A DNA stretch of 64,000 nucleotides from Candidatus Saccharimonadales bacterium (GCA_035457485.1 DATIBO010000006.1:754659-818658); one strand, 5' to 3'; positions 3,429 to 47,873 are shown, counted from the first letter of the stretch. A program made the numbers and translations. Notes: generated by a model from the sequence alone, not told the origin.

Positions 3429-4484
3429 ATGTCTAAAACAACAATTTCAATAAATGGGCGACTGTACGATGCCGTAACCGGAATGCCGGTTGCTGACGCA
3501 ATTAATCAACCTAAACCTGAGCATCGCGCGCCAACCCATCATCAATCTCATCAAAGTAGTCAAACTCACCAACCTAAATCTTTTAGCGATTTTGGAGTGC
3601 GGCAAGCAGCGCACACACATGTTGCACGCACTAGTACCGAAAAGCCAGCCGCTAGCGTACACCAACGGCCTTTAAAGTCACAAACTCTGCACCGCCAAGC
3701 TATCAAAAAGCCTGAGGTAGCACATACAGTTGAACATATCGCACAAACTACTCACCGAAGTCCACAAATTAGTAAGTTTGCCAGCCCTAAGATTGAACCA
3801 GTTCAGCAAATGCATGTTGAACCACCAGTTGAGCCGCCAAAAATGCCAGCGCCAGACCATCTAATTCCACCTCAAACTACACCTTTCCATCCAGCGCTCG
3901 CTCGCCAAGCCGCAAGCACGGCAAGCAGTTACCGTAGTAGTAAAGAACTTAAAGAACATCTTATTCGTGAACGTTTAGCCGAGGTTAGTACCCATAAAAC
4001 AAAAGCTAAAAAACAAAGTTTATTTGCCCGAAAACCCAAGCTTGCCAGTATCTTGGCAAGCACCTTGTCGCTGCTAATTTTGGGTGGCTATTTTACGTAC
4101 ATAAATTTGTCTAATATTTCTATGCAAGTAGCGTCTACGCGCGCAGGTGTAAGTGCGGAGTTCCCAAATTACAAGCCAAGCGGCTATGACATTAGCGGTC
4201 CAATCACATATGCACCAGGCGAAGTAAGCATTAATTATAAATCCAATGTAGGAGATGCTGGTTTTACGCTGACACAAAAAGCCGCCAACTGGGATAGTCA
4301 GGCGGTGCTCGACAACTACGTTCGAAAGCAAAGCAACACTTACTTAACTTTCCAAGATCATGGAATAACAGTTTACACGTTCAACAACAAGGCTGCATGG
4401 TCAAACGGTGGAATGCTCTACACGATCGACGGCAATGCCAATTTGAGCTCCGAACAGGTTTTGCGGCTAGCTACTAGTATTTAG
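3429..4484 (+). CDS. hypothetical membrane protein (H/Q/P-rich N-terminal half, one TM helix, globular C-terminus)
   Basis: ORF 3351..4484. I prefer the ATG at 3429 (MSKTTISING) downstream of GGAGGG over the TTG at 3351. No recognisable motif. Confidence 0.45.
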   Translation: MSKTTISINGRLYDAVTGMPVADAINQPKPEHRAPTHHQSHQSSQTHQPKSFSDFGVRQAAHTHVARTSTEKPAASVHQRPLKSQTLHRQAIKKPEVAHTVEHIAQTTHRSPQISKFASPKIEPVQQMHVEPPVEPPKMPAPDHLIPPQTTPFHPALARQAASTASSYRSSKELKEHLIRERLAEVSTHKTKAKKQSLFARKPKLASILASTLSLLILGGYFTYINLSNISMQVASTRAGVSAEFPNYKPSGYDISGPITYAPGEVSINYKSNVGDAGFTLTQKAANWDSQAVLDNYVRKQSNTYLTFQDHGITVYTFNNKAAWSNGGMLYTIDGNANLSSEQVLRLATSI

Positions 4485-4547: not shown

Positions 4548-6197
4548 TTATATGCGATTAAAACGTTCGACGACTCGATCTTTGCCCATAACCAACATCA
4601 TCTCGTGTAGGTTTGGGCTACGATTACGACCCGTCAAAGCTACTCGCAGTACCATCGCGACCTCGGCGACTGAACCTTTGAACTTATCTGGATTCTGCCT
4701 AAACTCTCTTGTATCTGGGGTGAATCCGTTTTTAGATCCAACAGTTTTTAACTTCTCGAACCAAGTCTGCTGATCATCGGCTGGATCATAACTCGCCAAA
4801 AAATCAGCAATCAAAGCTTTTGCGTCGGCCGGAGCAACGCCTCCAAAGTCAAACTCGGTAACCTGAGCAAAAATATCGTCAAAAAAGAACCCGTAAGCAT
4901 CGCGAAAATCAGACATCTTTCCAATATCTTTGCGTTTAGCATTATCGCGCTCAATCGACAAAACTTTAGCAGAGTATTCTGGGTCGGCAAGCAGCGCAAC
5001 CTCGAGCTCTTGGTCATATTTTTGCGACCATTTTACAACCAAATCAAAAACTTGCTTGGCAGTTAAGCTAGCCAAATAATTACGACTGATGTCTTCGAGT
5101 TTTTCCATACTCAAAAGAGCGCCAGAGTTTTTTTGCATTTTATCCAACTTAAATTCAAACTCTTTGTAAGCTAAGTTTGGGTTAGCACGGCGCCAATCTT
5201 CAAAATTGGAGTTAGCCAAATTCAACAAATACTCAAGTACAGCAACAACTGGGTAGCCCTCTTGTTCAAAAAAGGCGACATTTGCTTCTGGATCTTTCCG
5301 TTTGCTGAGCTTGCGGCGAGAGTTGCCATCCATCTTCTGAATCGGCGCACCGTGCGCATAAACAAACGGCTTATGTCCAAGGGCCTCGGTAAGCTGCATG
5401 TGCAAGGTTGTAGAGGGAAACCATTCATCCGTTCGCAAAATTGTTGTAGTTCCCATCAAAAAGTCATCTACGGCATGCGCCAAATGATAAGTTGGTAAGC
5501 CGATTCTTTTTAGCACCACAATATCATTGTCATTTTCAGGAAGCTCTTTGCGCCCCTTAATTAGATCGTGGACTACGCGCCTTTTATTAACGTCGCCAGT
5601 TGACCTAAAGCGAATTACAAATTGCTTGCCCGCATCAAGCGCCTTAACAACTTCAGACTCAGGTTTGTCGCGCCAAACCGCCCATTCGCCGTAGTAGCCA
5701 GGGCGAATCTTTTGCGCCATTTGGTTTTTGGCATTAGCTTCAAGTTCCTCAGGGGTTGCAAAACAAGGGTAGGCTAAGCCGCGCTCAAGCAACTTGCGAA
5801 CGTAAGTCTTGTAAATATCGGCTCGCTTTGTTTGAGAATATGGACCATAACCGCCAAGTTCACCGCCGATAATCGGGCCTTCGTCGTACGCCAAATCAAA
5901 GTTTTCGAGCATTTCTATGATGAGCTCACGCGCACCTTCAACCTCGCGCTTAGTGTCGGTATCCTCAATACGTAGATAATAAATTCCGCCAGTCTGAGCC
6001 GCCAAACGCTTGCAAATGAACGCCATATATAGCGTACCGATGTGCATAAAACCAGTTGGGCTCGGTGCAACGCGCACAACCTCAGCTCCTGCCGGTAAAT
6101 TGCGAGGTGGGTAGGTGGCTTCAATCTCCTCGATGGTTCTTTCACCCGTAGGCAGAATTCTATCTAAAGTTTCGGTGCTTAAAATAACTTGTGACAT
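4548..6197 (-). CDS. gltX: glutamate--tRNA ligase
   Basis: HIGH motif PSPTGFMHIGT and KMSKS-like KLSKRK. Start moved to MSQVILSTE (6197) from the ORF-track M at 6251. Confidence 0.9.
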   Translation of the reverse strand: MSQVILSTETLDRILPTGERTIEEIEATYPPRNLPAGAEVVRVAPSPTGFMHIGTLYMAFICKRLAAQTGGIYYLRIEDTDTKREVEGARELIIEMLENFDLAYDEGPIIGGELGGYGPYSQTKRADIYKTYVRKLLERGLAYPCFATPEELEANAKNQMAQKIRPGYYGEWAVWRDKPESEVVKALDAGKQFVIRFRSTGDVNKRRVVHDLIKGRKELPENDNDIVVLKRIGLPTYHLAHAVDDFLMGTTTILRTDEWFPSTTLHMQLTEALGHKPFVYAHGAPIQKMDGNSRRKLSKRKDPEANVAFFEQEGYPVVAVLEYLLNLANSNFEDWRRANPNLAYKEFEFKLDKMQKNSGALLSMEKLEDISRNYLASLTAKQVFDLVVKWSQKYDQELEVALLADPEYSAKVLSIERDNAKRKDIGKMSDFRDAYGFFFDDIFAQVTEFDFGGVAPADAKALIADFLASYDPADDQQTWFEKLKTVGSKNGFTPDTREFRQNPDKFKGSVAEVAMVLRVALTGRNRSPNLHEMMLVMGKDRVVERFNRI

Positions 6198-7360: not shown

Positions 7361-8847
7361 AAATCCACGACTACTTTAAAAAATTCAGGCAAAAAGCGAT
7401 TTTAATCGTAACTGTTTTGCAATTAAGCCTGGCTTTTTTAGCTGCATTTGCGCTAAGCAACATCACCCACGCTGACTTCGGCATGACATTTATGGTTTTA
7501 GCGGTGATAAATTTGCTCGCTACGCCTTTGGTCGTAACTGTTTTAAGCCAACCTTTTGGCAAACTAAGCAAAGCTGTGGCACACGTTAGTCAAGACCCTG
7601 TAATTACAGAGCCGCCCAAGCTAACAAAAGCAGATGAACAAACGGGATTAAAAGCTTTAGTTCAGACTGTTTACGAACTGGCCGTGGCGTCACCAAAAAA
7701 ACATGATGAGCAACAAAATGAAACTGCGGTTTTTAAAGAAATTTTAGACGTTTTACCATGCGGTGTAATCGCGCTTGGTAGCGACGGAACCGTTATATAC
7801 GCCAATCAACTCGCCCCTGTTAGTAAAACTCCAGAAGGCAAATTAACAATAGATCTGCATTTTGAGCAAAACGACACTTTAGCAGACTGGGTGTCAACTG
7901 CTCAAGCAAATAAAGTTCGCGATTCGCGACTGTGGTTGCGCGTGGCCGACAAATTGCCAGGTGAGCCCGAACAACGAATTTTCGACGTAGCAACTTATTA
8001 CCAAAAAGGAGACCCGACTGGACTTGAGGCGATAATTGTGACCTTTGACCGCACAAACGTATACAAAAACGATCAAGAAGACATGGATTTTATTGCTCTG
8101 GCCGCCCACGAATTGCGCGGACCAATTACGGTAATTCGCGGCTATCTTGACGTTTTTTCGCAGGAACTTGGCGACAGGCTCGATGCTGAGCAAAAACTCT
8201 TACTTGAACGACTAGAAGTTTCGGCCGAAAGATTATCGGGCAACGTGAATAATATTCTGAACGTGTCACGCTTTGACCGAAAGCAGCTTGCGTTTAGCCC
8301 GCAGGAAGAAAAATTAAGCGAAATCATCGCAGGATTAACCCCCGACTTGAACTTGCGTGCCCGGACCCAGCGGAAATTGCTCAAGTTCCAAATCCCTGCA
8401 AATCTACCAACGATCGCAGCCGATCGCGGCAGCCTAGGCGAGGTAATAACAAACTTGGTAGACAACGCTATAAAGTACAGCCCAGAAGGTGGCGAGGTTT
8501 TGATCAGCGCCGCACAAAAAGACAGCGAAGTTGAGTTCACAGTTCAAGATCATGGTATAGGCATTCCGGCTGCAATTGTTGGTAATTTGTTCAGCCGCTT
8601 TTACAGATCACACCGAAGTAGCCAAGCGATAGGAGGTACTGGTCTTGGCTTGTACATTTGCAAGGCTATAGTCGAAATGCATGGTGGCAAAATCTGGGTA
8701 CGATCAGTCGAGGGCCAGGGTAGCACTTTTGGGGTACTTTTACCAACATATGCCAGCGTTGCGGACAAATTAAAAACAGGCCATAATGCAGATATAACAC
8801 AGCGCCCAGAAGGTTGGATTAAAAACCACGCGATGATCCGGAGGTAG
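7351..8847 (+). CDS. sensor histidine kinase (TM, PAS-like, HisKA, HATPase_c)
   Basis: H-box AAHELRGPITVIRGY, N-box NLVDNAIKYSP, G-boxes DHGIGIP and GGTGLGLYICK. Confidence 0.85.
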   Translation: MAVKIHDYFKKFRQKAILIVTVLQLSLAFLAAFALSNITHADFGMTFMVLAVINLLATPLVVTVLSQPFGKLSKAVAHVSQDPVITEPPKLTKADEQTGLKALVQTVYELAVASPKKHDEQQNETAVFKEILDVLPCGVIALGSDGTVIYANQLAPVSKTPEGKLTIDLHFEQNDTLADWVSTAQANKVRDSRLWLRVADKLPGEPEQRIFDVATYYQKGDPTGLEAIIVTFDRTNVYKNDQEDMDFIALAAHELRGPITVIRGYLDVFSQELGDRLDAEQKLLLERLEVSAERLSGNVNNILNVSRFDRKQLAFSPQEEKLSEIIAGLTPDLNLRARTQRKLLKFQIPANLPTIAADRGSLGEVITNLVDNAIKYSPEGGEVLISAAQKDSEVEFTVQDHGIGIPAAIVGNLFSRFYRSHRSSQAIGGTGLGLYICKAIVEMHGGKIWVRSVEGQGSTFGVLLPTYASVADKLKTGHNADITQRPEGWIKNHAMIRR

Positions 8848-8848
8848 A

Positions 8849-9235
8849 ATGGATACAACAATAAAAACAATTTTATGCATCGAAGACGACCCCTTTATTG
8901 GTGACATGTACGCACGCAGCCTACGTAAAAGTGGATACGACGTAAAACTCGTTACTAGCGGTCAACTGGGTGTAGACGAGGCGTTAAAAAACACTTACGA
9001 CTTAATTTTGCTAGACATCTTACTGCCCGAAAAGCAGGGGACCGAAGTGTTAAAAGTTTTGCGCGGAGACACAGACAAGGTGCCCAATTCGCGCATTTTG
9101 GTTCTAACAAACTTTAGCCAGGACAAAGAATCCAGACTTGCCATGGAGAGCAAAGCCGACGGCTACCTAATTAAAGCCGACATTACTCCGCGAAAGCTAA
9201 TCGAAATAATTAAAAGCATGACAAGAGTAGTGTAA
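8849..9235 (+). CDS. response regulator, receiver domain only
   Basis: 128 aa with CIEDD...LLDILLP...YLIKAD receiver signature. Starts 2 nt after the kinase stop. Confidence 0.85.
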   Translation: MDTTIKTILCIEDDPFIGDMYARSLRKSGYDVKLVTSGQLGVDEALKNTYDLILLDILLPEKQGTEVLKVLRGDTDKVPNSRILVLTNFSQDKESRLAMESKADGYLIKADITPRKLIEIIKSMTRVV

Positions 9236-14717: not shown

Positions 14718-15134
14718 CTAAGCTAAAACGTCTGCGTATCGCGCCAAAACCCCAGCTTTGACGGCTTCGGGCTGCTCTAATACCACTTTCACACCCGGGA
14801 GCGTAACATCGGCATCGGTGTATTTAACTCCCCAGTTCATAAATTCAAAGAGCATTGGCAATAGATCGATGGATTTTTGGGTCGGTTTATAAATTGCAGC
14901 GCTCTTATTGGCCGGATCATCGTGCCTAGTTAAAAAACCATCTTTGACTAGTGAATCCAGGCGAGAGCTTAAAATATTGGTCGAAATCTTTTCGGGCGAT
15001 CCTAAAAGTTCGCGAAAGTGGCTTTTACCACCAAGCACGATGTCGCGCAAGATTACTAAACTCCACTTGTCACCAAGCATGTCTAACGATAACGCAACTG
15101 GGCAGCCGCTGGTTGTTCGCTTTTTCATAATCAT
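14718..15134 (-). CDS. HxlR family transcriptional regulator
   Basis: CPVALSLDMLGDKWSLVILRD is the HxlR N-terminal signature. Confidence 0.8.
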   Translation of the reverse strand: MIMKKRTTSGCPVALSLDMLGDKWSLVILRDIVLGGKSHFRELLGSPEKISTNILSSRLDSLVKDGFLTRHDDPANKSAAIYKPTQKSIDLLPMLFEFMNWGVKYTDADVTLPGVKVVLEQPEAVKAGVLARYADVLA

Positions 15135-16119: not shown

Positions 16120-16153
16120 ATAGCTCGCCCGAATCATGTGGCGAGCTATTTTT
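16120..16153 (+). terminator. intrinsic terminator of the SRPBCC operon
   Basis: ATAGCTCGCC/GGCGAGCTAT 10-bp stem, 10-nt loop, then TTTTT. Confidence 0.75.
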
Positions 16154-16220
16154 GTTTAAACGAACAAACCCGGACCACTGCATGAGCAGCCCGGGTGACC
16201 GACGGATGTCAGTGTTCGTC

Positions 16221-16742
16221 TTACTTGTCTTGCTTGGCCGCCGCGCGACTCAGCCTGCGCAGCTCCCGTTCTTGACAGAAGACCACGTAGGTTGCGACAC
16301 GTTCGGCGAGCGCCTGGGTCGGAACGCCGTAGACACCGCGTTCCGGCATGAATCGGTTGAGCGAGGCGCGGGGGAACTTGCGGTGGAACCAGCGGTTAGC
16401 CTCGTCTGAGCTCAGCCAGTTCACAAAACCGGCCGTGTGGCTGACGTCCCTCATCTTGGTGAGGTCGGCCAGGTACTCAGTAACCAGCTTGCGGCGCTTG
16501 CGAACCGTGTGGATCCAGCGGACGGCGACGCTCAGAGCGAGAATAGGGAAGACCACCATGGCGATCTTGTCCAGCACGGTGAGCTCGCCGCTCAGCGCGT
16601 TTTTGATCGGGGAAAACCACGGCCCGAGCCAGAGCAGAATGAGCCAGACACGGACGTTCGGCAATGAGCGGAACGGCACGCGGTCAAGCAGATCACCCCA
16701 GAACCAGCTCCAGGCATCTCCAACCAACTCGAACAGCTTCAT
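16221..16742 (-). CDS. hypothetical membrane protein on a high-GC (~60%) insert
   Basis: 173-aa ORF with G/C-ending codons throughout. Hydrophobic helices VRVWLILLWLGPWF and IAMVVFPILALSVAV, GAAAGG 7 nt before the ATG, hairpin 16168-16196 after the stop. Confidence 0.6.
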   Translation of the reverse strand: MKLFELVGDAWSWFWGDLLDRVPFRSLPNVRVWLILLWLGPWFSPIKNALSGELTVLDKIAMVVFPILALSVAVRWIHTVRKRRKLVTEYLADLTKMRDVSHTAGFVNWLSSDEANRWFHRKFPRASLNRFMPERGVYGVPTQALAERVATYVVFCQERELRRLSRAAAKQDK

Positions 16743-16816
16743 GTTGCGGCCTTTCGACGTTTGGACGAATAACTAATTTATACCATAAAAACAACAAAAA
16801 ATCTAGCATACGCTGA

Positions 16817-28225: not shown

Positions 28226-30637
28226 ATGAGCAAAAATCTAGTTATCGTAGAGTCACCAGCCAAAGCAAAAACCATCGCCAAATATTTAGGTAGCGATTTT
28301 GAAGTAAAAAGTAGCTTTGGACACATCCGTGATCTGCCAAAAAAGGGGATGAGCGTAGATATTGCTCATAAATTTGAACCCACCTACGAAGTCAGCCCTG
28401 ACAAAAAAAAGACAGTCGCCGAACTTAAGCGCGCAGCAAAATCAGCCGAAACGGTTTGGCTCGCATCGGATGAAGACCGCGAAGGAGAGGCGATTGCTTG
28501 GCATCTAAGCGAAGTTTTAAAGCTAAAGCCAGCTCAAACAAAACGCATTGTATTCCACGAAATCACAAAACCAGCAATCGAGAATGCGGTTAAAAATCCG
28601 CGCGAGCTCGATAAAGATTTAGTTGACGCACAACAAGCACGCAGAATTTTAGACCGAATTGTAGGATACGAGCTTAGTCCAGTTTTGTGGCGAAAAGTCC
28701 GACCAGGCCTGAGTGCAGGTCGCGTGCAATCTGTTGCGGTTCGCTTAATATCGGAGCGCGAAAACGAAATAATCAACTTTAAAGCCGAAAGCGCATTCAA
28801 AGCGAGTGCGGTTTTTGATCTAAAAGACGGCACTGAACTAAAAGCCGAAAGCGCAGCAAAATACAAAACCGAAGACTCTGCTAAAAAGTTTTTGACTGAC
28901 TTGGCCGAGAGCGACTGCACTATCGCAGATATCGAAAAGTCCCCAGGCACACGCAGCCCCAGTGCACCTTTTACGACCAGCACACTACAACAGGAAGCAT
29001 CGCGCAAACTCGGTTTTAGCCCAAAGCAAACCATGATGCTAGCGCAGCGCCTTTACGAAGAAGGTCACATTACTTACATGCGTACCGACTCTTTTAACTT
29101 GAGCAGCTTGGCGATTGGCGCCATGAGTGAACTTATCAAAAAAGAGTTTGGACCAGATTATTTGCAAGTTCGCAAGTACTCAACAAAATCCGCCGGTGCA
29201 CAAGAAGCCCACGAGGCAATTCGCCCTACGCACTTTGAGCGTACAGAGGTTGGTAAAGACTCTCAGCAAAAAAAGCTTTATCAGTTAATTTGGCGCCGTG
29301 CGGTTGCTAGTCAAATGGCCGCTGCAAAAGTCGAGAAAACCACAATTAAAATTGCGGCCAGCAAAACAAAGGATCAACTAGAAGCAAAAGGTGAAGTCGT
29401 AATCTTTGCTGGATTCTTAAAAGTTTATGGGAGCAAAAAAGAAGACGGCATATTGCCAGATGTAGCCAAGGGAGACCCTTTAATACTAGTGGGCGCTGCA
29501 GCCGAGCAAACCTATTCACGCGCTCCTTCGCGATATACGGAGGCCAGCCTAGTGCGTAAACTTGAAGAACTAGGAATTGGTCGCCCAAGTACGTACGCGC
29601 CAACAATCAGCACAATTCAAACCCGCGGCTACGTAGAGAAAGCAGACGTAATGGGTGGTGAGCGAGAGGTTGTTAGATTAGCCCTTGCAAAGGTCAAGGC
29701 TTCGCCCAAAGCTCTCGGAAGCTTGTTTTTGAGCACGAACGATCAAGCGCCTGAGAATACCGGACCCGAGGAGCAAGTAAAAACCGAGCTCACCTCCGAA
29801 AAGGTCGGCCATTTTACACTGGCTCGTCGCCAAGCCTCAGAGCCAATTCCAACCGACAAGGGTAAATTAGTGCCAACCGACATCGGCAACGTAGTAACTG
29901 ACTTTTTGGTAAAAAATTTCCCGCATACGATCGACTACGACTTTACAAAAGATGTAGAACAAAAGTTCGACGACGTAGCCGAGGGCAAACTAGCCTGGCA
30001 GGCAATGTTGCAAAAATTCTACGACCCGTTTCATTCTACCGTAGAAAAATCCGGCGACATTAGCAGAGCAGAGGCAATGCAATCGCGCCCTCTTGGTAAA
30101 GACCCCAAAACCGGTAAGCCAGTAAGCGCACGATTTGGGCGCTTTGGGCCTATGGTACAAATTGGCGCAGCCGAAGATGAAGAAAAACCTAAGTTTGCAG
30201 GGATCCCAGCTGGTAAAACTATCGACAGTATAACTTTAGAGCAAGCTTTAGAGCTGTTTAAATTACCGCGAATTGTTGGGCAAACTGATGACGGCAAAGA
30301 TATCGAAGCTAACAATGGGCGATTTGGACCATACATAAAAGTTGGTAGCAGCTATGTTTCGATTAAAGGCAATGACCCTCTCGAGATTGACCTAAAAACC
30401 GCAAAAGAATTATTAAAAGCCGATGCTGACAAGAAGGCGAAAATGACCATCCATGTTTTTGATGAGCAGGGGATTAAAGTTTTGAACGGGCGATTTGGAC
30501 CATACGTAACAGATGGGAAAAAGAACATTAAGGTTCCGAAAGACCAAGATCCAAAAAAACTGACCTTAAAAGATTGTCAGGAGATTCTGAGCAAAGCACC
30601 CGCAAAAGCCGCACGAAAACGACGTGTTCGTTCATAA
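28226..30637 (+). CDS. topA: DNA topoisomerase I
   Basis: Toprim start LVIVESPAKAKTIAKYLG, DEDREGEAIAWH, active-site region ITYMRTDS, basic C-terminal repeats NGRFGPY. Confidence 0.95.
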   Translation: MSKNLVIVESPAKAKTIAKYLGSDFEVKSSFGHIRDLPKKGMSVDIAHKFEPTYEVSPDKKKTVAELKRAAKSAETVWLASDEDREGEAIAWHLSEVLKLKPAQTKRIVFHEITKPAIENAVKNPRELDKDLVDAQQARRILDRIVGYELSPVLWRKVRPGLSAGRVQSVAVRLISERENEIINFKAESAFKASAVFDLKDGTELKAESAAKYKTEDSAKKFLTDLAESDCTIADIEKSPGTRSPSAPFTTSTLQQEASRKLGFSPKQTMMLAQRLYEEGHITYMRTDSFNLSSLAIGAMSELIKKEFGPDYLQVRKYSTKSAGAQEAHEAIRPTHFERTEVGKDSQQKKLYQLIWRRAVASQMAAAKVEKTTIKIAASKTKDQLEAKGEVVIFAGFLKVYGSKKEDGILPDVAKGDPLILVGAAAEQTYSRAPSRYTEASLVRKLEELGIGRPSTYAPTISTIQTRGYVEKADVMGGEREVVRLALAKVKASPKALGSLFLSTNDQAPENTGPEEQVKTELTSEKVGHFTLARRQASEPIPTDKGKLVPTDIGNVVTDFLVKNFPHTIDYDFTKDVEQKFDDVAEGKLAWQAMLQKFYDPFHSTVEKSGDISRAEAMQSRPLGKDPKTGKPVSARFGRFGPMVQIGAAEDEEKPKFAGIPAGKTIDSITLEQALELFKLPRIVGQTDDGKDIEANNGRFGPYIKVGSSYVSIKGNDPLEIDLKTAKELLKADADKKAKMTIHVFDEQGIKVLNGRFGPYVTDGKKNIKVPKDQDPKKLTLKDCQEILSKAPAKAARKRRVRS

Positions 30638-30679
30638 AAATGCTTGCATAATATTAAAAAACATGTAATAATGAGTTTA

Positions 30680-31126
30680 TCCAAGTTTGGTAGGTGGCCC
30701 ATCGGGGTCTGACCAGACAGGTGTCGTGACACGGAGAGCTCACGACTTTGTAGGCGCATGGAGCTGCAGCATTGCTTTTACTTGTAAATCGGCCGATGAG
30801 CAACAGTCTCGCGCCCGGCGCCTCACAATCCTGCTGGAACGGGGAAAGACCAGGAAATAACCCCCCTAGTCAAAGCACCCCACAGGGTGTAGCCCCGCTC
30901 CAGCAATCCAACTTCGCGACGCGCTCCTCCTCCGTGTCGCACGGCACATCTCACGGCTCCGCCCCCGTAGCCGGTTGTGCCGTTCCCCGGTCGCATATGC
31001 GCGCTTAGGCCGCAGCGACCAAGGGCGACCTCGCCGCCCGCCTACCATCGTGGTGGCGGGGTCGCCCCCAAATACACCCCTGGCCTCTCGGCGCACATGT
31101 TGCGTGGGAGGTCAGGGGCCTCTTTT
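30680..31126 (+). ncRNA. GC-rich structured RNA candidate (~440 nt), class unresolved (divergent RNase P RNA not excluded)
   Basis: About 60-70% G+C inside AT-rich flanks, with only nonsense ORFs. Promoter-like TTGCAT-16-TAATAA at 30644-30671, many 6-13 bp local helices, terminal hairpin plus U tract. Confidence 0.5.
31077..31126 (+). terminator. intrinsic terminator closing the GC-rich RNA candidate
   Basis: CCCCTGGCCTCTC (31077-31089) pairs with GGGAGGTCAGGGG (31105-31117), two G-U pairs, then CCTCTTTTTT. Confidence 0.65.
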
Positions 31127-31304
31127 TTATAAAGACCTTAACAATATTAGTTATCCACAAGACATAAGCAGTATCACAGTATAATATGTCTTTATAGTCT
31201 AATTAATGCTATAATTTACATATACATTGAATAATGTTGACTAAAATCAAATTTTATGTCAAAATATTTATAAATAACTCCAAAAACTAGGGAAGCTAAA
31301 AATT

Positions 31305-32342
31305 ATGCACGACTCATCTACCGAAACCGCCACCGTCGATTTAGCAGCGTCTATCAAAGGCATCCTAAATACGATCGAGCGTGACCGTGAACGCGAAATT
31401 ATCTCGCGTCGTTTTGGTTTATTCGATCGCAAAGAAACCCTAGAACAAGTCGGCGAACTACTTGGCATTACTCGCGAACGCGTTCGCCAACTAGAGAAGG
31501 CTATTATGATCCGCCTAAAAATGGCTGCCGAGAGTAACCTTCCTCAGATTCCTGAGCTTGAAAAGCAATTTATTCGCCACTTACATGACTTGGGTCGAGT
31601 TGCAAAGGTAAATGACCTTAGCGCCCTAGTAACCAAAAATGACACTGAACTTGACCGCGCACATGTTGCATTCATTGCAGCTCTTTCGCCACGCCTAACT
31701 TTAGTAGAAGAGAATGATCGCTATCATCAGGGCGTAGGTTTAAGTGAGTTCCACGACAGTGATAAAATTAAAAAGAACGTTGACGAAATCATCAAAACCA
31801 TTAAAGAATCTGGTTCTCCGGTGACGGTCGATTCTCTACACGAAAAGCTTTCGCATGATCATCCAAGCCACGTTAAAGCGCTTGCTAGTTTAAGTAAACA
31901 GCTTGCGAACCTAAAGGGCAAGTGGGGTCTTACTCAATGGCCAAGTGTAAACCCAAAGAACATTCGCGATAAGATTTTTGTGATTCTACAAGAAAACGAC
32001 AAGCCTATGCACTTTAACGAGATCGCAAAGGCTATTAAAGGTTCTGATTTCCGCCGTAAAGATGTTACCACTCAGGCGATTCACAACGAACTAATCAAAG
32101 ATAGTCGCTTTGTTTTGATCGGTCGCGGAATTTACGCCCTAAAAGACTGGGGTTATTCTAAAGGAACAGTCGCCGATATTATTGTCGACGTTCTTAAAAA
32201 AGAAGGCAACCCGCTTCACCGCGACGAAATCGTTAAGCGCGTTTTGAAACACCGACAAGTTAAAGAAACTACAATTCTTTTGAACTTGCAGGGTAAAAAG
32301 CAATTCAAGCGCACCGCTAAAGCGACCTACGGCTTGGCCTAA
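31305..32342 (+). CDS. sigma-70 region 4-like HTH protein with two C-terminal HARE-HTH-like modules
   Basis: RFGLFDRKETLEQVGELLGITRERVRQLEKAIMIRLK (region 4). KPMHFNEIAKAI...IHNELIKDSRFVLIGRGIYALKDWGY and NPLHRDEIVKRVL (HARE-HTH pattern). Confidence 0.65.
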   Translation: MHDSSTETATVDLAASIKGILNTIERDREREIISRRFGLFDRKETLEQVGELLGITRERVRQLEKAIMIRLKMAAESNLPQIPELEKQFIRHLHDLGRVAKVNDLSALVTKNDTELDRAHVAFIAALSPRLTLVEENDRYHQGVGLSEFHDSDKIKKNVDEIIKTIKESGSPVTVDSLHEKLSHDHPSHVKALASLSKQLANLKGKWGLTQWPSVNPKNIRDKIFVILQENDKPMHFNEIAKAIKGSDFRRKDVTTQAIHNELIKDSRFVLIGRGIYALKDWGYSKGTVADIIVDVLKKEGNPLHRDEIVKRVLKHRQVKETTILLNLQGKKQFKRTAKATYGLA

Positions 32343-32399: not shown

Positions 32400-35060
32400 A
32401 TGGGCCCATTCTTACTAGAAATTCTGAGCAAATGGTATATTTGGCTTCCGATAGCCGCAGTTTTTGCATACCTTGCGTTCCGCAATAATTTGCGCGCTAA
32501 AACAGTTGCCGATACTGAACATACTCTATTGATTCTTGAAATTCCACGAACAAACGACAAAAAAGAATTAGCCGCCGAACAGATGTTCGCCAGTTTACAT
32601 GGCATTTTGCGTGATAAAAAGGAACTACTGAGTCAAGGTGGGCTCCAAGAACATATTAGTTTTGAAATTGCATCAATCGATAAGCAGATCAGGTTTTACG
32701 TCTGGGTGCCAACTCACTTGCAAAACTTTCTAGAAGGCCAAATCTACGCACAGTATCCAACTGTACAGATCCACAAAGCAGACAGCGATTATACTGAGCG
32801 CGAGATTTTACAGCCGGTAATTTACTCGGCCGAGTTAGCCTTAACAGATAACGAGGCGTTACCAATCAAGACTTTTCAAAGCTTCGAAGTTGACCCGCTT
32901 GCTGCCGTAACAGCAACCTTAGCCAAACTCGAAGAACAGAATGAAGAAATATGGATCCAGGTTTTAGCTCGGCCAGTGTCAGATGGATGGCATTTTAAGT
33001 CAACCCGTTTTGCCAATAAACTAAAAGGGAAGGCTAACAGCGGAGTTGGTCACTTACTACTAGGACTACTCCAGGCCTTCTTTAAGCCGCCCGAGGCCAA
33101 AGATTCAAGTGCACCCGAGATTAGCGAACGCGACAAAAGCCGAATCAGTGAAATCGAAAAGAAAAGCGTAAAACTTGGCTACCAAGTTAAAATGCGAATT
33201 TTATATCTGGGAAATACCGAAAAAACAGCAAAACTACGCATGCAGGCAATTGTTGGAACATTCAAGCAATTTAATAGCACCAACCTTAATGGATTTCAGA
33301 TTAAAGGTGCAGCGTATGGCCAAGAGGGCATAGATAAATTCCGAGCGCGCTTTTTCATAGACAAAGGCTACATCTTAAACATTGAAGAGCTCGCTAGCGT
33401 TTACCACCTACCGCACACAACAGTAGAGACGCCGAACATCGTTTGGGCTAGCTCAAAAACGGCCGAGCCACCGGCAAAACTACCAATTATACTTGGCACG
33501 GACAGAGATAACGAGATAAGCGCATTCGGCTTAACAAACTTCAGAGGAATTAACCAGCAATTTGGATTATTCCGAGGCGATCGAGGCAGGCACGCTTATA
33601 TAATTGGTCAAACTGGAACCGGTAAATCGGGAATGCTCGAGCTTTTGGCGCTAAGTGATATTTTCCATAATCAAGGATATGCAATTATTGACCCGCACGG
33701 TGATTTTGCAATGGCAAATCTTAAGTTCATTCCACCGTCACGCATAAAAGATGTGGTTTACTTTAACCCGGCCGACATGCAGTTCCCGATTGGTTTCAAC
33801 CCAATGGAGGTAAGCGATCCAAACATGAAGAGCCATATCAGCTCCGAAGTTATTGGCGTCCTTAAACGCATGTTCGGCGACAGTTGGGGGCCGCGCTTGG
33901 AATATATTTTGCGTTACACGATTTTAGCTTTGCTTGATTACCCAAATACAACACTCCTCGATATCACCCGAATGCTAACCGATAAAAAATTCCGCAAGGC
34001 TGTAGTAGAAAATTGCCAAGATACTGTGGTTCGTCAGTTCTGGAATGTTGAGTTTGCTAGCTGGAACGACAAATTCTTAGCCGAAGCTATAAGCCCAGTA
34101 TTAAACAAAGTTGGAGCTTTCACTGCCAACCCAATTATTCGTAATATCATTGGTCAGCCAAAAAGTACATTTAACATTCGCAAAATTATGGACGAGGGCA
34201 AGATTTTGGTGGTTAACCTTTCTAAAGGTCTGATCGGTGAAGACAACGCCGGAATCTTAGGGTCTTTCCTTGTGACTAAGATTCAGTTGGCTGCGATGAG
34301 CCGCAGCGATATTCCTCTCATCGAAGATCGCAGACCGTTCTATTTATACGTAGATGAGTTCCAGAACTTTGCGACCGATTCGTTTGCCACTATTTTAAGC
34401 GAGGCACGCAAGTACGGCCTTAACTTGACCGTAGCCAACCAGTACATCAGCCAAATGGGCGAAACCGTTCGCGACGCAGTATTTGGTAACGTGGGAACAA
34501 CCATTTCTTTCCGCGTAAGTCCAGATGACTCTCAGATTCTGGGAAAACAGTTTGCGCCGCAATTTTTACCTGAAGACATCATGCAAATGGCAAACCGGCA
34601 CTTTGTAATTACTATGGTAATAAACGGCGAAAAAACACCCTCGTTCTCGGCTCGCACTTTAACATTGCCGCCAGCACAAACCAACTTTACCGAGCAGATT
34701 GTTCAAAATACCAGGCAAAATTACGCACGACCCGTTAACGACGTTGTAGCGGAGATCCAACAGAATGTTAATCCGACCCATAATCAGCAGGCGGTTACCG
34801 CGAGTAACAAGCCGAAGGAGCCTAAGCCAGATGAGGTTAAGCCACTACCGATAGTTAACGAAACAAAAATAGAACAAGCTAAACCTGCAGAGCAACCCGC
34901 ACCACAGAGCGAACCTGCGCTTACTGCCGCCGCCAGTGAGCCCGAAAGCGCCAGCAAAAAGCGGCGCCGACGCAGAAAGCGTAGTAAGAGCAAACAGGGG
35001 AGTGAAGTTACAACCGGCCCCGAGCCCCACAATGACAGTTCGTCTTTGAGTCTGCGCTAA
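32400..35060 (+). CDS. TraD/VirD4-like (type IV coupling protein-like) P-loop ATPase, membrane-anchored, basic low-complexity tail
   Basis: TM helix WYIWLPIAAVFAYLAF, Walker A GQTGTGKSG, Walker B-like FYLYVDEFQNFAT, LTVANQYISQ, C-terminal KKRRRRRKRSKSK. Confidence 0.65.
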   Translation: MGPFLLEILSKWYIWLPIAAVFAYLAFRNNLRAKTVADTEHTLLILEIPRTNDKKELAAEQMFASLHGILRDKKELLSQGGLQEHISFEIASIDKQIRFYVWVPTHLQNFLEGQIYAQYPTVQIHKADSDYTEREILQPVIYSAELALTDNEALPIKTFQSFEVDPLAAVTATLAKLEEQNEEIWIQVLARPVSDGWHFKSTRFANKLKGKANSGVGHLLLGLLQAFFKPPEAKDSSAPEISERDKSRISEIEKKSVKLGYQVKMRILYLGNTEKTAKLRMQAIVGTFKQFNSTNLNGFQIKGAAYGQEGIDKFRARFFIDKGYILNIEELASVYHLPHTTVETPNIVWASSKTAEPPAKLPIILGTDRDNEISAFGLTNFRGINQQFGLFRGDRGRHAYIIGQTGTGKSGMLELLALSDIFHNQGYAIIDPHGDFAMANLKFIPPSRIKDVVYFNPADMQFPIGFNPMEVSDPNMKSHISSEVIGVLKRMFGDSWGPRLEYILRYTILALLDYPNTTLLDITRMLTDKKFRKAVVENCQDTVVRQFWNVEFASWNDKFLAEAISPVLNKVGAFTANPIIRNIIGQPKSTFNIRKIMDEGKILVVNLSKGLIGEDNAGILGSFLVTKIQLAAMSRSDIPLIEDRRPFYLYVDEFQNFATDSFATILSEARKYGLNLTVANQYISQMGETVRDAVFGNVGTTISFRVSPDDSQILGKQFAPQFLPEDIMQMANRHFVITMVINGEKTPSFSARTLTLPPAQTNFTEQIVQNTRQNYARPVNDVVAEIQQNVNPTHNQQAVTASNKPKEPKPDEVKPLPIVNETKIEQAKPAEQPAPQSEPALTAAASEPESASKKRRRRRKRSKSKQGSEVTTGPEPHNDSSSLSLR

Positions 35061-46610: not shown

Positions 46611-47873
46611 TTAGCCCCTAATCTGTTTAATGATTTTTCCAAACCAGATTGCACTTGGTCTAAGTGTGCGTTTTTTCGTTTTGTAATCGACTTCGGCAAG
46701 TCCAAATCGAGGCCAAAAACCACTGGACCACTCAAAGTTGTCGGTCAAGCTCCAATGTAAATAACCTTCTAACCTTACCCCCGATTGAATCGCACGATGC
46801 ATGGCCATTAGCGTCTGGCTCAGCCACCATTTCCTAAATTCATCGTCATGGTCGGCCAAGCCATTTTCTGTGATAATGATTGGCAGGTTGTACTGATCAT
46901 AAAGTTGTTTTAAAACAATCTCGATATCGGCAGGGCGCATATCCCAGCCCAAATCACTTCGACGCAGGTTTTCATTATGCTGCCTGTAGCCATAGTAACG
47001 ATTGGAAAAATAGTAGTTTAAGCCGATAAAATCCAGATACTTTTTAATACGCCCTAACAAGAATCCGTCTTCCACCCAAGACATAACTTTGGCAGTGGTT
47101 TGCGACAAAACTGCATCGTCTCCGGCGTAGTGATGTGCCGTATTTTTAGCAATGCTAATTAAATATTTGCGACCTTTCTTTTTTGCGGCCTTGTAAACTT
47201 TTTTATGAACCGAAATTAAGTTCAGCAAAACTACCAAAGCCTCGGTCTTGCTCCGCCGTTGCGGTGGCCACTCCCCGAGTAAAAAGCTCTTGGCGGCGTA
47301 GACTTCGGGTTCGTTCAAGGTAATAACATACCGAAAATTTTGACCAAGTTCATCAAATACTTTTTCGGCAAACCGTAAAAAATAGCCAATATTGCTACGT
47401 TTTGTAAAGCCACCTTTTTGCTCGAACCAAACCGGCACAGTCCAATGCCACAGAGTTACAATTGGTTCCACTCCTATAGCTGCAAGCTTTTTTAGATAAA
47501 CGCGGTAATGTTCAATTGCTTCAGCGTTCCAAGCACCTTCTTCTGGCTCTACACGAGACCACTCAATACTAAAGCGCCAAGCATTCATGTTGAGCTTTTT
47601 TATTAAAGCAAAATCCTCTTGGTAACGGTTATAATGATCTGTTGCCTTGCCTGAGACATAGTTCGCCGGATTTGTGGCATCAGCTTTAATTTGATCCCAC
47701 TTTGGCAAATAATTAGCCTGGTATTTAGCTGTCTCGGCCAGGATTTTAGCGTGTTCGAGTTCCCAAACAGTCCACTGATTATGGTTTGACCCCTCAACCT
47801 GATGTGCCGCACTTGCTGCGCCCCACAAAAAGTGCCCCGGAAACTTTAAAAGCAAACCCTCGTCTTTTTTCAT
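46611..47873 (-). CDS. glycoside hydrolase family 1 beta-glucosidase
   Basis: FLWGAASAAHQVEG, acid/base TLNEP, nucleophile ITENG. Confidence 0.85.
   Translation of the reverse strand: MKKDEGLLLKFPGHFLWGAASAAHQVEGSNHNQWTVWELEHAKILAETAKYQANYLPKWDQIKADATNPANYVSGKATDHYNRYQEDFALIKKLNMNAWRFSIEWSRVEPEEGAWNAEAIEHYRVYLKKLAAIGVEPIVTLWHWTVPVWFEQKGGFTKRSNIGYFLRFAEKVFDELGQNFRYVITLNEPEVYAAKSFLLGEWPPQRRSKTEALVVLLNLISVHKKVYKAAKKKGRKYLISIAKNTAHHYAGDDAVLSQTTAKVMSWVEDGFLLGRIKKYLDFIGLNYYFSNRYYGYRQHNENLRRSDLGWDMRPADIEIVLKQLYDQYNLPIIITENGLADHDDEFRKWWLSQTLMAMHRAIQSGVRLEGYLHWSLTDNFEWSSGFWPRFGLAEVDYKTKKRTLRPSAIWFGKIIKQIRG

Follow-up and report, generated by a model that had tools for sequence, protein, structure and literature searches.

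Between topA and the gene that follows it, a stretch of 64,000 nucleotides (nt) from a Candidatus Saccharimonadales bacterium (GCA_035457485.1 DATIBO010000006.1:754659-818658; analysed over its whole length and hereafter called the window) carries a G+C-rich, hairpin-dense island which is very probably a functional gene for a structured RNA of a new family, with a transcript predicted from the plus strand. An earlier note, made from the sequence alone, had read the gap as encoding a large structured RNA that stands alone, with a promoter and a terminator of its own, and this core reading is supported by the absence of Rfam matches, by the noncoding character of the island, by compensatory change and by a promoter-like element found in 15 loci. 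The list of open reading frames (ORFs) of the window confirms the limits of the gap: the topA ORF occupies 28226-30637 and the next one 31305-32342. The product of the latter combines sigma-70 region 4 (Sigma70_r4) and HARE-HTH domains, and its homologues bear the Joint Genome Institute (JGI) label RNA polymerase delta subunit.

When the G+C content is taken in 100-nt windows, it goes from 0.38-0.44 to 0.54-0.72 between ~30700 and ~31100 and falls to 0.20-0.36 on the 3′ side of ~31100, the value for the whole window being 0.44; a GC-rich island set between AT-rich flanks, as described earlier, is thus borne out, and the 43/60 counted at 30961-31020 in the earlier note is consistent with the peak value of 0.72. 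The three overlapping ORFs that had been noticed in it and dismissed as noncoding (30772..31008 on the plus strand, 30866..31096 on the minus strand and 30975..31184 on the plus strand) are all present in the ORF list, and neither Pfam nor phmmer gives a credible protein match. Indeed, Pfam has no match for any of the seven island ORFs. An exhaustive phmmer search with the longest of them (78 amino acids, aa) against 1.84 billion representatives returned a single protein, which was rejected as spurious: a 22-residue stretch was aligned again and again to the repeat unit of a protein of 5142 aa, never with more than 27 bits. Moreover, blastn of the island against phage and plasmid collections gave no match, its longest match elsewhere in the 64-kb window is 14 nt, so that no part of it is repeated there, and no flanking direct repeats or att-like sites were found around it. 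Long, near-perfect inverted repeats lie inside it.

No known RNA family accounts for the island. Rfam 15 was searched at the gathering score with the window and 18 loci, at E≤10 with 30600-31200 and at E≤1 with four loci. At the gathering score the whole window gives two tRNAs only, and at E≤10 the segment 30600-31200 gives only chance matches of miRNA or snoRNA type with E>1, with no RNase P, tmRNA, 6S, signal recognition particle or large RNA among them; no family matches were found in 22 related loci. ARAGORN likewise reports two tRNAs and no tmRNA in the window, in agreement with the earlier judgement that the island fits neither RNase P RNA nor tmRNA. The same holds for RNAIII, RsaE and 6C (no Rfam match at E≤10) and for OLE, ROOL, GOLLD, HEARO and raiA, whose covariance models match neither the island nor the related loci searched.

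Fold and predicted transcript

The plus-strand fold of 30676-31128 reaches -219 kcal/mol, versus -173 ± 6 kcal/mol in dinucleotide shuffles (z = -7.6), and a second run with 16 shuffles gives z = -11.3; the minus strand is much weaker in both runs (z = -3.4 and -5.1, respectively). A fold that exceeds chance and weakens on the minus strand speaks for a plus-strand RNA. For the 5′ half (30676-30912) the departure from the shuffles is smaller (z = -2.9), and G-U pairs make up 12 of the 148 predicted pairs of the window RNA. All the internal helices that had been drawn by eye recur in the minimum-free-energy (MFE) folds. The 3′ hairpin of the earlier note is present and is followed by CCUCUUUUUU, as proposed, with the correction that its 3′ arm had been placed one base out of register: the true pairing is 31077-31090/31105-31118, a stem of 14 bp with three G-U pairs instead of 13 bp with two.

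A promoter-like element would define the other end of the molecule. A -35-like box, TTGCAT (30644..30649, plus strand), lies 6 nt 3′ of the topA stop codon and is separated by a 16-nt spacer from a -10-like box, TAATAA (30666..30671, plus strand). This pair of boxes, already pointed out in the earlier note at these coordinates, can be aligned across 15 island-bearing syntenic loci, in each case just after the topA stop, with the consensus cTTGCAT, an A-rich spacer and GTAnnAA(T/A). TTGC is invariant in that alignment, and so are A31 and A34 of the -10 region. K-mer counts find CTTGCAT in 7 of 15 islands; none contains its reverse complement. The predicted transcript, of ~450 nt, would then run over 30676..31128 on the plus strand, its 5′ end being set from the -10 box and its 3′ end by the U-tract. 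No terminator was found between topA and the promoter-like box, so that topA transcripts probably carry the island RNA as their 3′ end as well.

One related island (locus L002, 8301-9900, ~1.6 kb) holds a second promoter-like sequence, TTGACT-N17-TAGAAA, which lies ~890 nt in and resembles the first, and may therefore consist of two tandem RNA genes. ACUUGUG or GCUUGUG occurs six times in the same island.

Structure and sequence of the related islands

TopA-based scans of species-representative genomes and metagenomes yielded 160 loci, mostly from Saccharimonadales. The order topA, then the Sigma70_r4 and HARE-HTH gene, is widely kept, and islands between them recur across the order, always on the topA strand. 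The spacer measures 70-370 nt in many lineages and 550-1750 nt in the island carriers (L001, L002, L003, L004, L006, L009, L036, L083-L085 and L136), whose islands, G+C-rich and hairpin-dense, range from ~360 to ~1600 nt among lineages. In nine other islands the plus-strand z values lie between -6.7 and -26, and with the window this makes ten islands, in eight of which the plus strand folds relatively better than the minus strand. GC-rich coding DNA scores close to zero (z from -0.9 to +0.4 for the GC-rich ORF inserts of L012 and L013, another GC-rich window ORF and a piece of topA), so that high G+C content alone does not explain the folding of the islands.

In other, more distant lineages (L008, L012, L013, L016, L021, L091, L101, L102 and L110) the same spacer holds unrelated cargo, with ORFs of 190-400 aa, some of them of 65-70% G+C, and behaves as an insertion hotspot.

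At the level of sequence, nhmmer and blastn (word size 7) found no matches of the island among the 160 syntenic loci. A search with the downstream protein identified closer relatives, L161 (94% identity), L162 (85%), L163 (83%) and L164 (80%). Over the 150 nt upstream of the downstream gene, the window and L161 share 91% identity, and this segment is all that MAFFT aligned of the window and the four closest relatives; the islands themselves were unalignable by MAFFT, blastn and nhmmer. Hypervariability beyond the neutral rate was considered and dropped: fourfold-degenerate sites of the neighbouring gene are themselves only 54% identical between the window and L161. Since unconstrained sequence is already saturated at this distance, ordinary drift explains the lost similarity of the islands.

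The structure, in turn, can be recovered. The only inputs to a covariance model (R2) were the sequence of window positions 30913-31067 and the MFE structure predicted for it. Its best match, with 32.7 bits and E=3.6e-5, is L161:235-408, which lies at the syntenic position. The model is specific, as no other G+C-rich island was found in 89 kb and the next best match has E=4.5. In the resulting alignment of the window with L161, which is fitted to the model and hence biased towards pairing, 96.9% of cells are paired and 18 pairs are changed on both sides; sliding the partners leaves 0-2 two-sided changes, and none of 500 shuffles reaches the observed values. The paired columns are 50% identical and nevertheless still paired, which means that the stems drift almost neutrally under compensatory substitution.

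The modules follow one another in the same order in both RNAs: first a hairpin whose loop carries CGGAGAG, then a long hairpin ending in ACUUGU.A.AUCGGCCG at its tip, a multi-branch domain, and the five 3′ modules M1-M5, whose order is identical and whose dot-bracket topologies match. The parts of the window RNA, all on the plus strand and taken from its fold, are as follows. Hairpin A (30685..30718), seen in both MFE and centroid folds, lies at the 5′ end and holds CUGACCAGACAG (the DNA 12-mer CTGACCAGACAG at 30709-30720), which pairs locally with UUUGGUA and not with the 3′ end. Hairpin B (30723..30746) has a 7-bp stem, GUCGUGA/UCACGAC, and the loop CACGGAGAGC (30730-30739), and at the equivalent place L161 has a hairpin with the loop GCGGAGAGA, the two loops sharing CGGAGAG. 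Domain C (30748..30828), a long irregular hairpin, ends in ACUUGUAAAUCGGCCG, and its equivalent in L161 carries TACTTGTTAGATCGGCCG at the tip. Domain D (30832..30905) is a three-way junction with a closing helix at ~30832-30844/30893-30905 and two inner hairpins, and contains GGGGAAAGACCAGG at 30841-30854; a multi-branch domain stands at the same place in the module order of L161.

Module M1 (30913..30940) consists of an 8-bp stem (30916-30923/30933-30940) and a 9-nt loop, CUCCUCCUC (30924-30932), which resembles the anti-Shine-Dalgarno sequence. Its counterpart in L161 is GACAUG-ACCUCCUC-CAUGUC, with one compensatory change from C-G to U-A and one change from G-U to A-U relative to the window. 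In module M2 (30941..30983) an outer stem (30941-30948/30976-30983) leads through a 5-nt internal loop to an inner stem, which is topped by a CCCC loop (in the context CCGCCCCCGU). The topology is identical in L161, where the inner stem is extended; the tip CCCCCGU is common to both, and three outer-stem and three inner-stem pairs are changed on both sides in the model-fitted alignment. Module M3 (30984..31020) is a hairpin closed by GGUCGC/GCGACC (30989-30994/31015-31020), a closing helix that L161 has as well (GGGUCGC/GCGACCC). Module M4 (31021..31067), seen in the fold and as inverted repeat I2, is a hairpin of 16-18 bp (31023-31040/31049-31067) with the tip CCCGCCU (31037-31043), also present in L161, and six of its pairs are changed on both sides and still paired in the same alignment.

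Module M5 with the terminator (31077..31128) combines the 14-bp stem described above with a cap formed by a 4-bp hairpin, followed by the U-tract. Its arms UGGCCU...GGAGGUCA recur in L161, and the corresponding arms in L162 are CCCUUCGA...UUGGAGGUU; both relatives have a separate small terminator hairpin 3′ of M5. Since MAFFT mis-registers the 5′ arm of M5 among the three lineages, that alignment was not used for counting pairs. What remains fixed between the window and L161 is therefore concentrated at tips and arms, namely CCUCCUC in M1, CCCCCGU in M2, CCCGCCU in M4 and the M5 arms. Stems that drift fast around C-rich loops that stay fixed suggest that the loops are the working surface of the molecule.

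Further evidence comes from a sister clade of ten loci, around L083/L085 and L165-L172, which can be aligned over the whole island. RNAalifold gives 78 consensus pairs for these ten loci, 29 of them with compensatory change. Long-range pairs join GGGG (columns 171-175) with CCCC (801-804), just before the terminator, and AGGGGU (281-286) with ACCCCU (495-500). The core comprises a covarying stem, which presents ACGCCUCC as an invariant loop, and after it a nested helix; in the core alignment 93% of cells are paired and nine pairs are changed on both sides, a value that none of 500 shuffles reaches, and the slide control was passed. The sister-clade islands are real, globularly folded RNAs. Compensatory pairs are thus found in the nearest relative as well as in the sister clade, and the structured RNA proposed in the earlier note stands on covariation too.

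L003 (~8570-8600 and ~9055-9085) and L084 (~4410-4445 and ~4790-4825) each contain two copies of a UU-bulged hairpin, ACCGC-UU-GAGCC-loop-GGUUC-GCGGU, and L162 has a similar one at ~3645-3670 (GCGC-UU-GAG...CUC-GCGC); it looks like a recurring sub-module. Five short-read contigs (L161, L163, L164, L168 and L169) begin inside the island or just downstream of it. These starts may be due to breaks in assembly or coverage caused by the G+C-rich hairpins; in that case such RNAs would be under-represented in metagenome assemblies.

C-rich loops and rival explanations

The anti-Shine-Dalgarno sequence of 16S rRNA has CCUCC at its core. When every 5-mer was counted in the MFE hairpin loops of 16 islands, taking loops on stems of 4 bp or longer, this motif came first, present in 9 of the 16, followed by GCCUC and CGCCU; on the minus strand, GGAGG appears in loops of 2 of 16 islands. 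CCUCC is unpaired in 15 of its 35 occurrences, versus 2 of 20 for GGAGG. Loops of this type are ACCUCCUC in L161, CUACAGCCUCCUA in L162, CAUGCCUCC in L004, AGCCUCC in L006, CUCCGCCUCC in L009, ACCUCCUCGA in L002 and ACGCCUCC in the sister clade. The window RNA therefore has the trait of the class of C-rich-loop RNAs, an unpaired C-rich motif conserved in hairpin loops, in the M1 loop and at the tips of M2 and M4.

A mode of action can be proposed on this basis. The RNA would be transcribed from the TTGCAT/TAATAA element and would end at the M5 hairpin and U-tract, while topA messages would probably end in the same RNA. Its approximately ten G+C-rich helices would form a stable scaffold presenting the conserved C-rich loops CUCCUCCUC, CCGCCCCCGU and CCCGCCU, and these, in the least certain step, might base-pair with G-rich, Shine-Dalgarno (SD)-like GGAGG sequences of selected mRNAs and block translation initiation, or else titrate them. 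The analogy is with the Gram-positive regulators RsaE and RNAIII, whose unpaired C-rich motifs bind SD sequences and thereby prevent initiation (PMC2790875; PMC2837412), and with the actinobacterial 6C small RNA (sRNA), which binds mRNA targets via C-rich loops (PMC6486639). We put forward pairing with SD sequences tentatively, as an idea by analogy that is somewhat more doubtful than not, and the statement as a whole, that of a structured RNA of a new family acting through its C-rich loops on SD-like sequences, is evenly poised between right and wrong.

Several observations weigh against this reading, in addition to the pairing bias of the fitted alignment. The promoter-like box fails a generic sigma-70 consensus scan, TTGCAT matching TTGACA at only 3 of 6 positions. 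The two closest loci by TopA, L081 and L082, have neither island nor promoter-like box and their spacers measure ~95 and ~65 nt, which implies that the RNA is dispensable or has moved elsewhere. The model of the sister-clade core (R1) finds neither the window nor other clades. With the two-sequence model of the window and L161 (R3) and filters off, the best match falls inside the plus-strand island in 5 of 10 loci (E from 0.003 to 0.07); these matches are marginal and start at CCUCC hairpins, and there is also one match on the wrong strand. Common ancestry of all islands, and with it homology between the window and the sister clades, is no more than likely, judging from synteny, promoter, composition and loop motif.

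From the side of the targets, GGAGG occurs within 20 nt of the start in only 3 of 57 window ORFs and GGAG in 8 of 57; a general anti-SD role is accordingly unlikely, and targets would be few. No extended complement to the M1 and M2 loops (GGAGGAGGAG and ACGGGGGCGG) was found outside the island in the 64-kb window. Furthermore, the CCUCCUC loop of M1 (30924-30932; L161 ~246-253) finds a partial complement in the loop of hairpin B (window 30730-30739; L161 ~24-32), so the CCUCC loop could instead make an intramolecular kissing-loop contact with the CGGAGAG loop, or bind a protein. In one sub-clade, a nearby GGAGG can pair with the CCUCC loop.

Several window ORFs have a TATAAT-like box abutting the ATG, e.g., 14718..15134 and 46611..47873, both on the minus strand. 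Together with the low counts of GGAGG and GGAG, this suggests weak use of SD sequences and possibly leaderless mRNAs in the genome of the window.

The best placed of the rival explanations, possible if rather doubtful in our view, is that of a large scaffold or ornate RNA (a ribonucleoprotein component, a ligand-binding RNA or a ribozyme), comparable with OLE, ROOL, GOLLD or raiA, in which the C-rich loops would serve as tertiary contacts or protein sites. The long-range helices that close the sister-clade RNA, the GGGG/CCCC one by the terminator and AGGGGU/ACCCCU, would suit it, as would the kept order of some ten modules between the window and L161, a length of 450-1600 nt and a stability of the helices that exceed the needs of an sRNA pairing through a seed, and the scarcity of SD sequences in the genome. 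The possible kissing of the CGGAGAG and CCUCCUC loops, both present in the window and L161, points in the same direction; this contact, however, would amount to ~4 bp only, and both loops are invariant, which leaves no covariation to test. Against a scaffold speak the lack of any match to the large RNA families of Rfam 15 and the variation of length (~360-1600 nt) and module content between close lineages, with possible tandem copies, which is unusual for a precise three-dimensional fold.

It is distinctly unlikely that the island is only a cis-acting 3′ untranslated region (UTR) of topA, i.e., a stack of hairpins that keeps 3′ exonucleases off the topA message and insulates the gene that follows, and has no role in trans. 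The 6 nt from the topA stop to the promoter-like box hold no terminator, so topA transcripts must enter the island, which is always on the topA strand; moreover, island-free L081 and L082 have short spacers (~95 and ~65 nt). Nevertheless, the promoter-like element is found at the 5′ edge of the island in 15 loci and is absent from precisely those two, L002 appears to hold a second one inside its 1.6-kb island, and loop sequences are kept while the stems drift, something that a stability element does not need.

An RNA that binds RNA polymerase, of 6S or Ms1 type, is very unlikely. Such a role would be in keeping with the adjacent gene for Sigma70_r4 and HARE-HTH domains (RNA polymerase delta subunit in the JGI labelling) and with the fact that 6S RNAs keep their structure far better than their sequence. 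Nonetheless, there is no Rfam match to 6S or Ms1 at E≤10, some ten separate helices follow one another in the fold, in place of one long helix with a central bubble, and adjacency is the sole link, the same spacer holding other cargo elsewhere, ordinary ORFs included.

An element acting at the level of DNA, as a hairpin or cruciform (e.g., a supercoiling-sensitive or single-strand recombination site), is extremely improbable. Its long near-perfect inverted repeats and its place between a topoisomerase gene and a cargo hotspot, with dprA directly upstream of topA, would agree with it, but 8 of 10 islands fold relatively better on the plus strand, the 12 G-U pairs among 148 would be A-C mismatches on the other strand, and the element is bracketed by promoter and terminator without flanking direct repeats.

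A decayed and functionless remnant of horizontally acquired high-G+C DNA, for instance from an actinobacterial host, is scarcely credible. It would fit a hotspot that received GC-rich ORFs in L012 and L013 and other ORFs in L008, L016, L021, L091 and L101, and a window with another GC-rich, foreign-looking ORF at 16221-16742; nevertheless, GC-rich coding inserts give z ~0 versus -7 to -26 for the islands, 97% of pairs are kept by compensatory change at neutral-level divergence, and there is neither a protein homologue nor a match in the phage and plasmid collections.

Finally, the chance that we deal with a very divergent RNase P RNA or tmRNA is practically negligible. The size suits, CUGACCAGACAG is identical to what we take to be the 5′ end of Escherichia coli M1 RNA (the chance of such a 12-mer match being estimated at ~0.01), and GGGGAAAGACCAGG is faintly like GAGGAAAGUCC. 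In RNase P RNA, the P4 helix pairs GAGGAAAGUCC (CR-I) with ACAGAA..CCGGCUUA (CR-V), and P1 pairs the 5′ and 3′ ends. In the island, by contrast, GGGGAAAGACCAGG, the nearest motif, is buried in the three-way junction of domain D, no CR-V-like sequence was found, and the 12-mer lies in a local hairpin and is absent, as printed, from the full-length L162 (the L161 contig starts 3′ of that region). Neither Rfam (E≤10) nor ARAGORN gives a match, nor do 22 related loci. RNase P RNA is essential and conserved in sequence and size; the island is missing from the locus in the close relatives L081 and L082 and is ~360-1600 nt long elsewhere, and we know of no RNase P RNA that varies threefold in length or loses all similarity between close relatives. 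The divergent rnpB that had been left open in the earlier note is thus not supported.

Known systems and gene neighbourhood

Among the described RNAs, those of Staphylococcus aureus, RNAIII (514 nt, 14 hairpins) and RsaE/RoxS, are alike in having a promoter and terminator of their own (predicted here), many stable hairpins and C-rich loop motifs. They differ in that there is no similarity of sequence or covariance model and in that their motif is UCCC and not CCUCC; in comparison with them, the island RNA has no embedded peptide gene, a G+C content far above that of the genome, approximately fourfold variation in length and an apparently SD-poor host. The 6C sRNA differs in its two hairpins and less than 100 nt, against ~ten helices over 450 nt, and in the absence of a 6C match in Rfam at E≤10. 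It shares the G+C-rich hairpins and conserved, functional C-rich loops that bind several mRNAs (PMC6486639).

OLE, ROOL, GOLLD, HEARO and raiA are similarly large, structured, lineage-restricted, G+C-rich, intergenic and supported by covariation. These ornate RNAs, however, have extensive conserved sequence and a fixed architecture, whereas the island RNA can no longer be aligned when the neighbouring protein is still 94% identical and varies in length and number of modules. sRNAs derived from 3′ UTRs, of the DapZ or MicL type, resemble it in a promoter-like element at the end of the gene (here topA) and a terminator shared with its transcripts, but they measure ~80-300 nt and depend on Hfq; here the promoter lies just after the coding sequence and the RNA greatly exceeds them in size. 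RNase P RNA and tmRNA are of similar size, and the island lacks P4, CR-I and CR-V, a tRNA-like domain and a tag frame and is not universal among relatives. Lastly, repetitive extragenic palindromes (REP), bacterial interspersed mosaic elements (BIME) and miniature inverted-repeat transposable elements (MITEs) may likewise place several stable hairpins together downstream of a gene; the hairpins of the island, in contrast, are each unique, with no second copy in the 64-kb window, and it is the loops rather than the stems that are conserved, without terminal or flanking repeats.

Altogether, the window shows the traits proposed for the family, i.e., the position between topA and the Sigma70_r4/HARE-HTH gene, the same strand, the element cTTGCAT-N16-18-TAnnAA, the terminator and covariation. 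The best reading is that of a new family of bacterial structured regulatory or scaffold RNA, likest the C-rich-loop regulators in its working and a member of none of the known groups. Literature searches gave no description of this RNA, nor of any regulatory RNA of Saccharibacteria beyond a few motifs, e.g., lysM-TM7 (PMC5737381).

Saccharibacteria and other members of the candidate phyla radiation have tiny genomes and live as obligate epibionts, for which an RNA of ~0.45-1.6 kb, supported by covariation, provided with a conserved promoter-like element and placed beside topA in the core chromosome, is a substantial investment and hence likely to be important. The case is also a test of detection, since sequence search fails at 94% identity of the neighbouring protein while a covariance model from a single sequence recovers the homologue. 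As the family is recognised by synteny, structure and short loop motifs, other RNAs of the kind probably escape notice as a rule. Should the C-rich loops indeed act on ribosome-binding sites, they would provide a first handle on post-transcriptional control in this phylum, where genetic tools are emerging.

Actinobacteria are known hosts of cultured Saccharibacteria. A further speculation, with little chance of being right in full, is that of a large RNA class specific to Saccharimonadales, in which only the helices and a few C-rich, anti-SD-like loops would be selected, the rest turning over neutrally and modules being gained, lost and duplicated. Such a class might serve for translation control or titration in an SD-poor and possibly leaderless-rich genome, or as a nuclease-resistant RNA acting on G-rich targets of the high-G+C actinobacterial host.

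As for the neighbourhood, dprA precedes topA, and a gene for a TrwB/TraG-like coupling-protein ATPase (window 32400-35060) follows the sigma-like gene in all relatives examined. Elsewhere in the window, a second RNA island at 16151-16750 was considered and dropped in view of a real ORF of 173 aa with a fold z of ~0. This ORF (16221-16742, minus strand), of ~61% G+C, with a hydrophobic N-terminal half and no Pfam family, looks like a horizontally acquired gene.

Between the island and the Sigma70_r4/HARE-HTH gene, and immediately 5′ of the promoter region of that gene (TGCTATAAT), lies TTATCCACA (window 31151-31159), which we take to be a perfect DnaA box of E. coli type. It is conserved as TT(A/T)TCCACA, with equivalents in L001, L002, L007, L009, L036, L084, L136, L161-L164, L081 and L082, and its occurrence is independent of the presence of the island.

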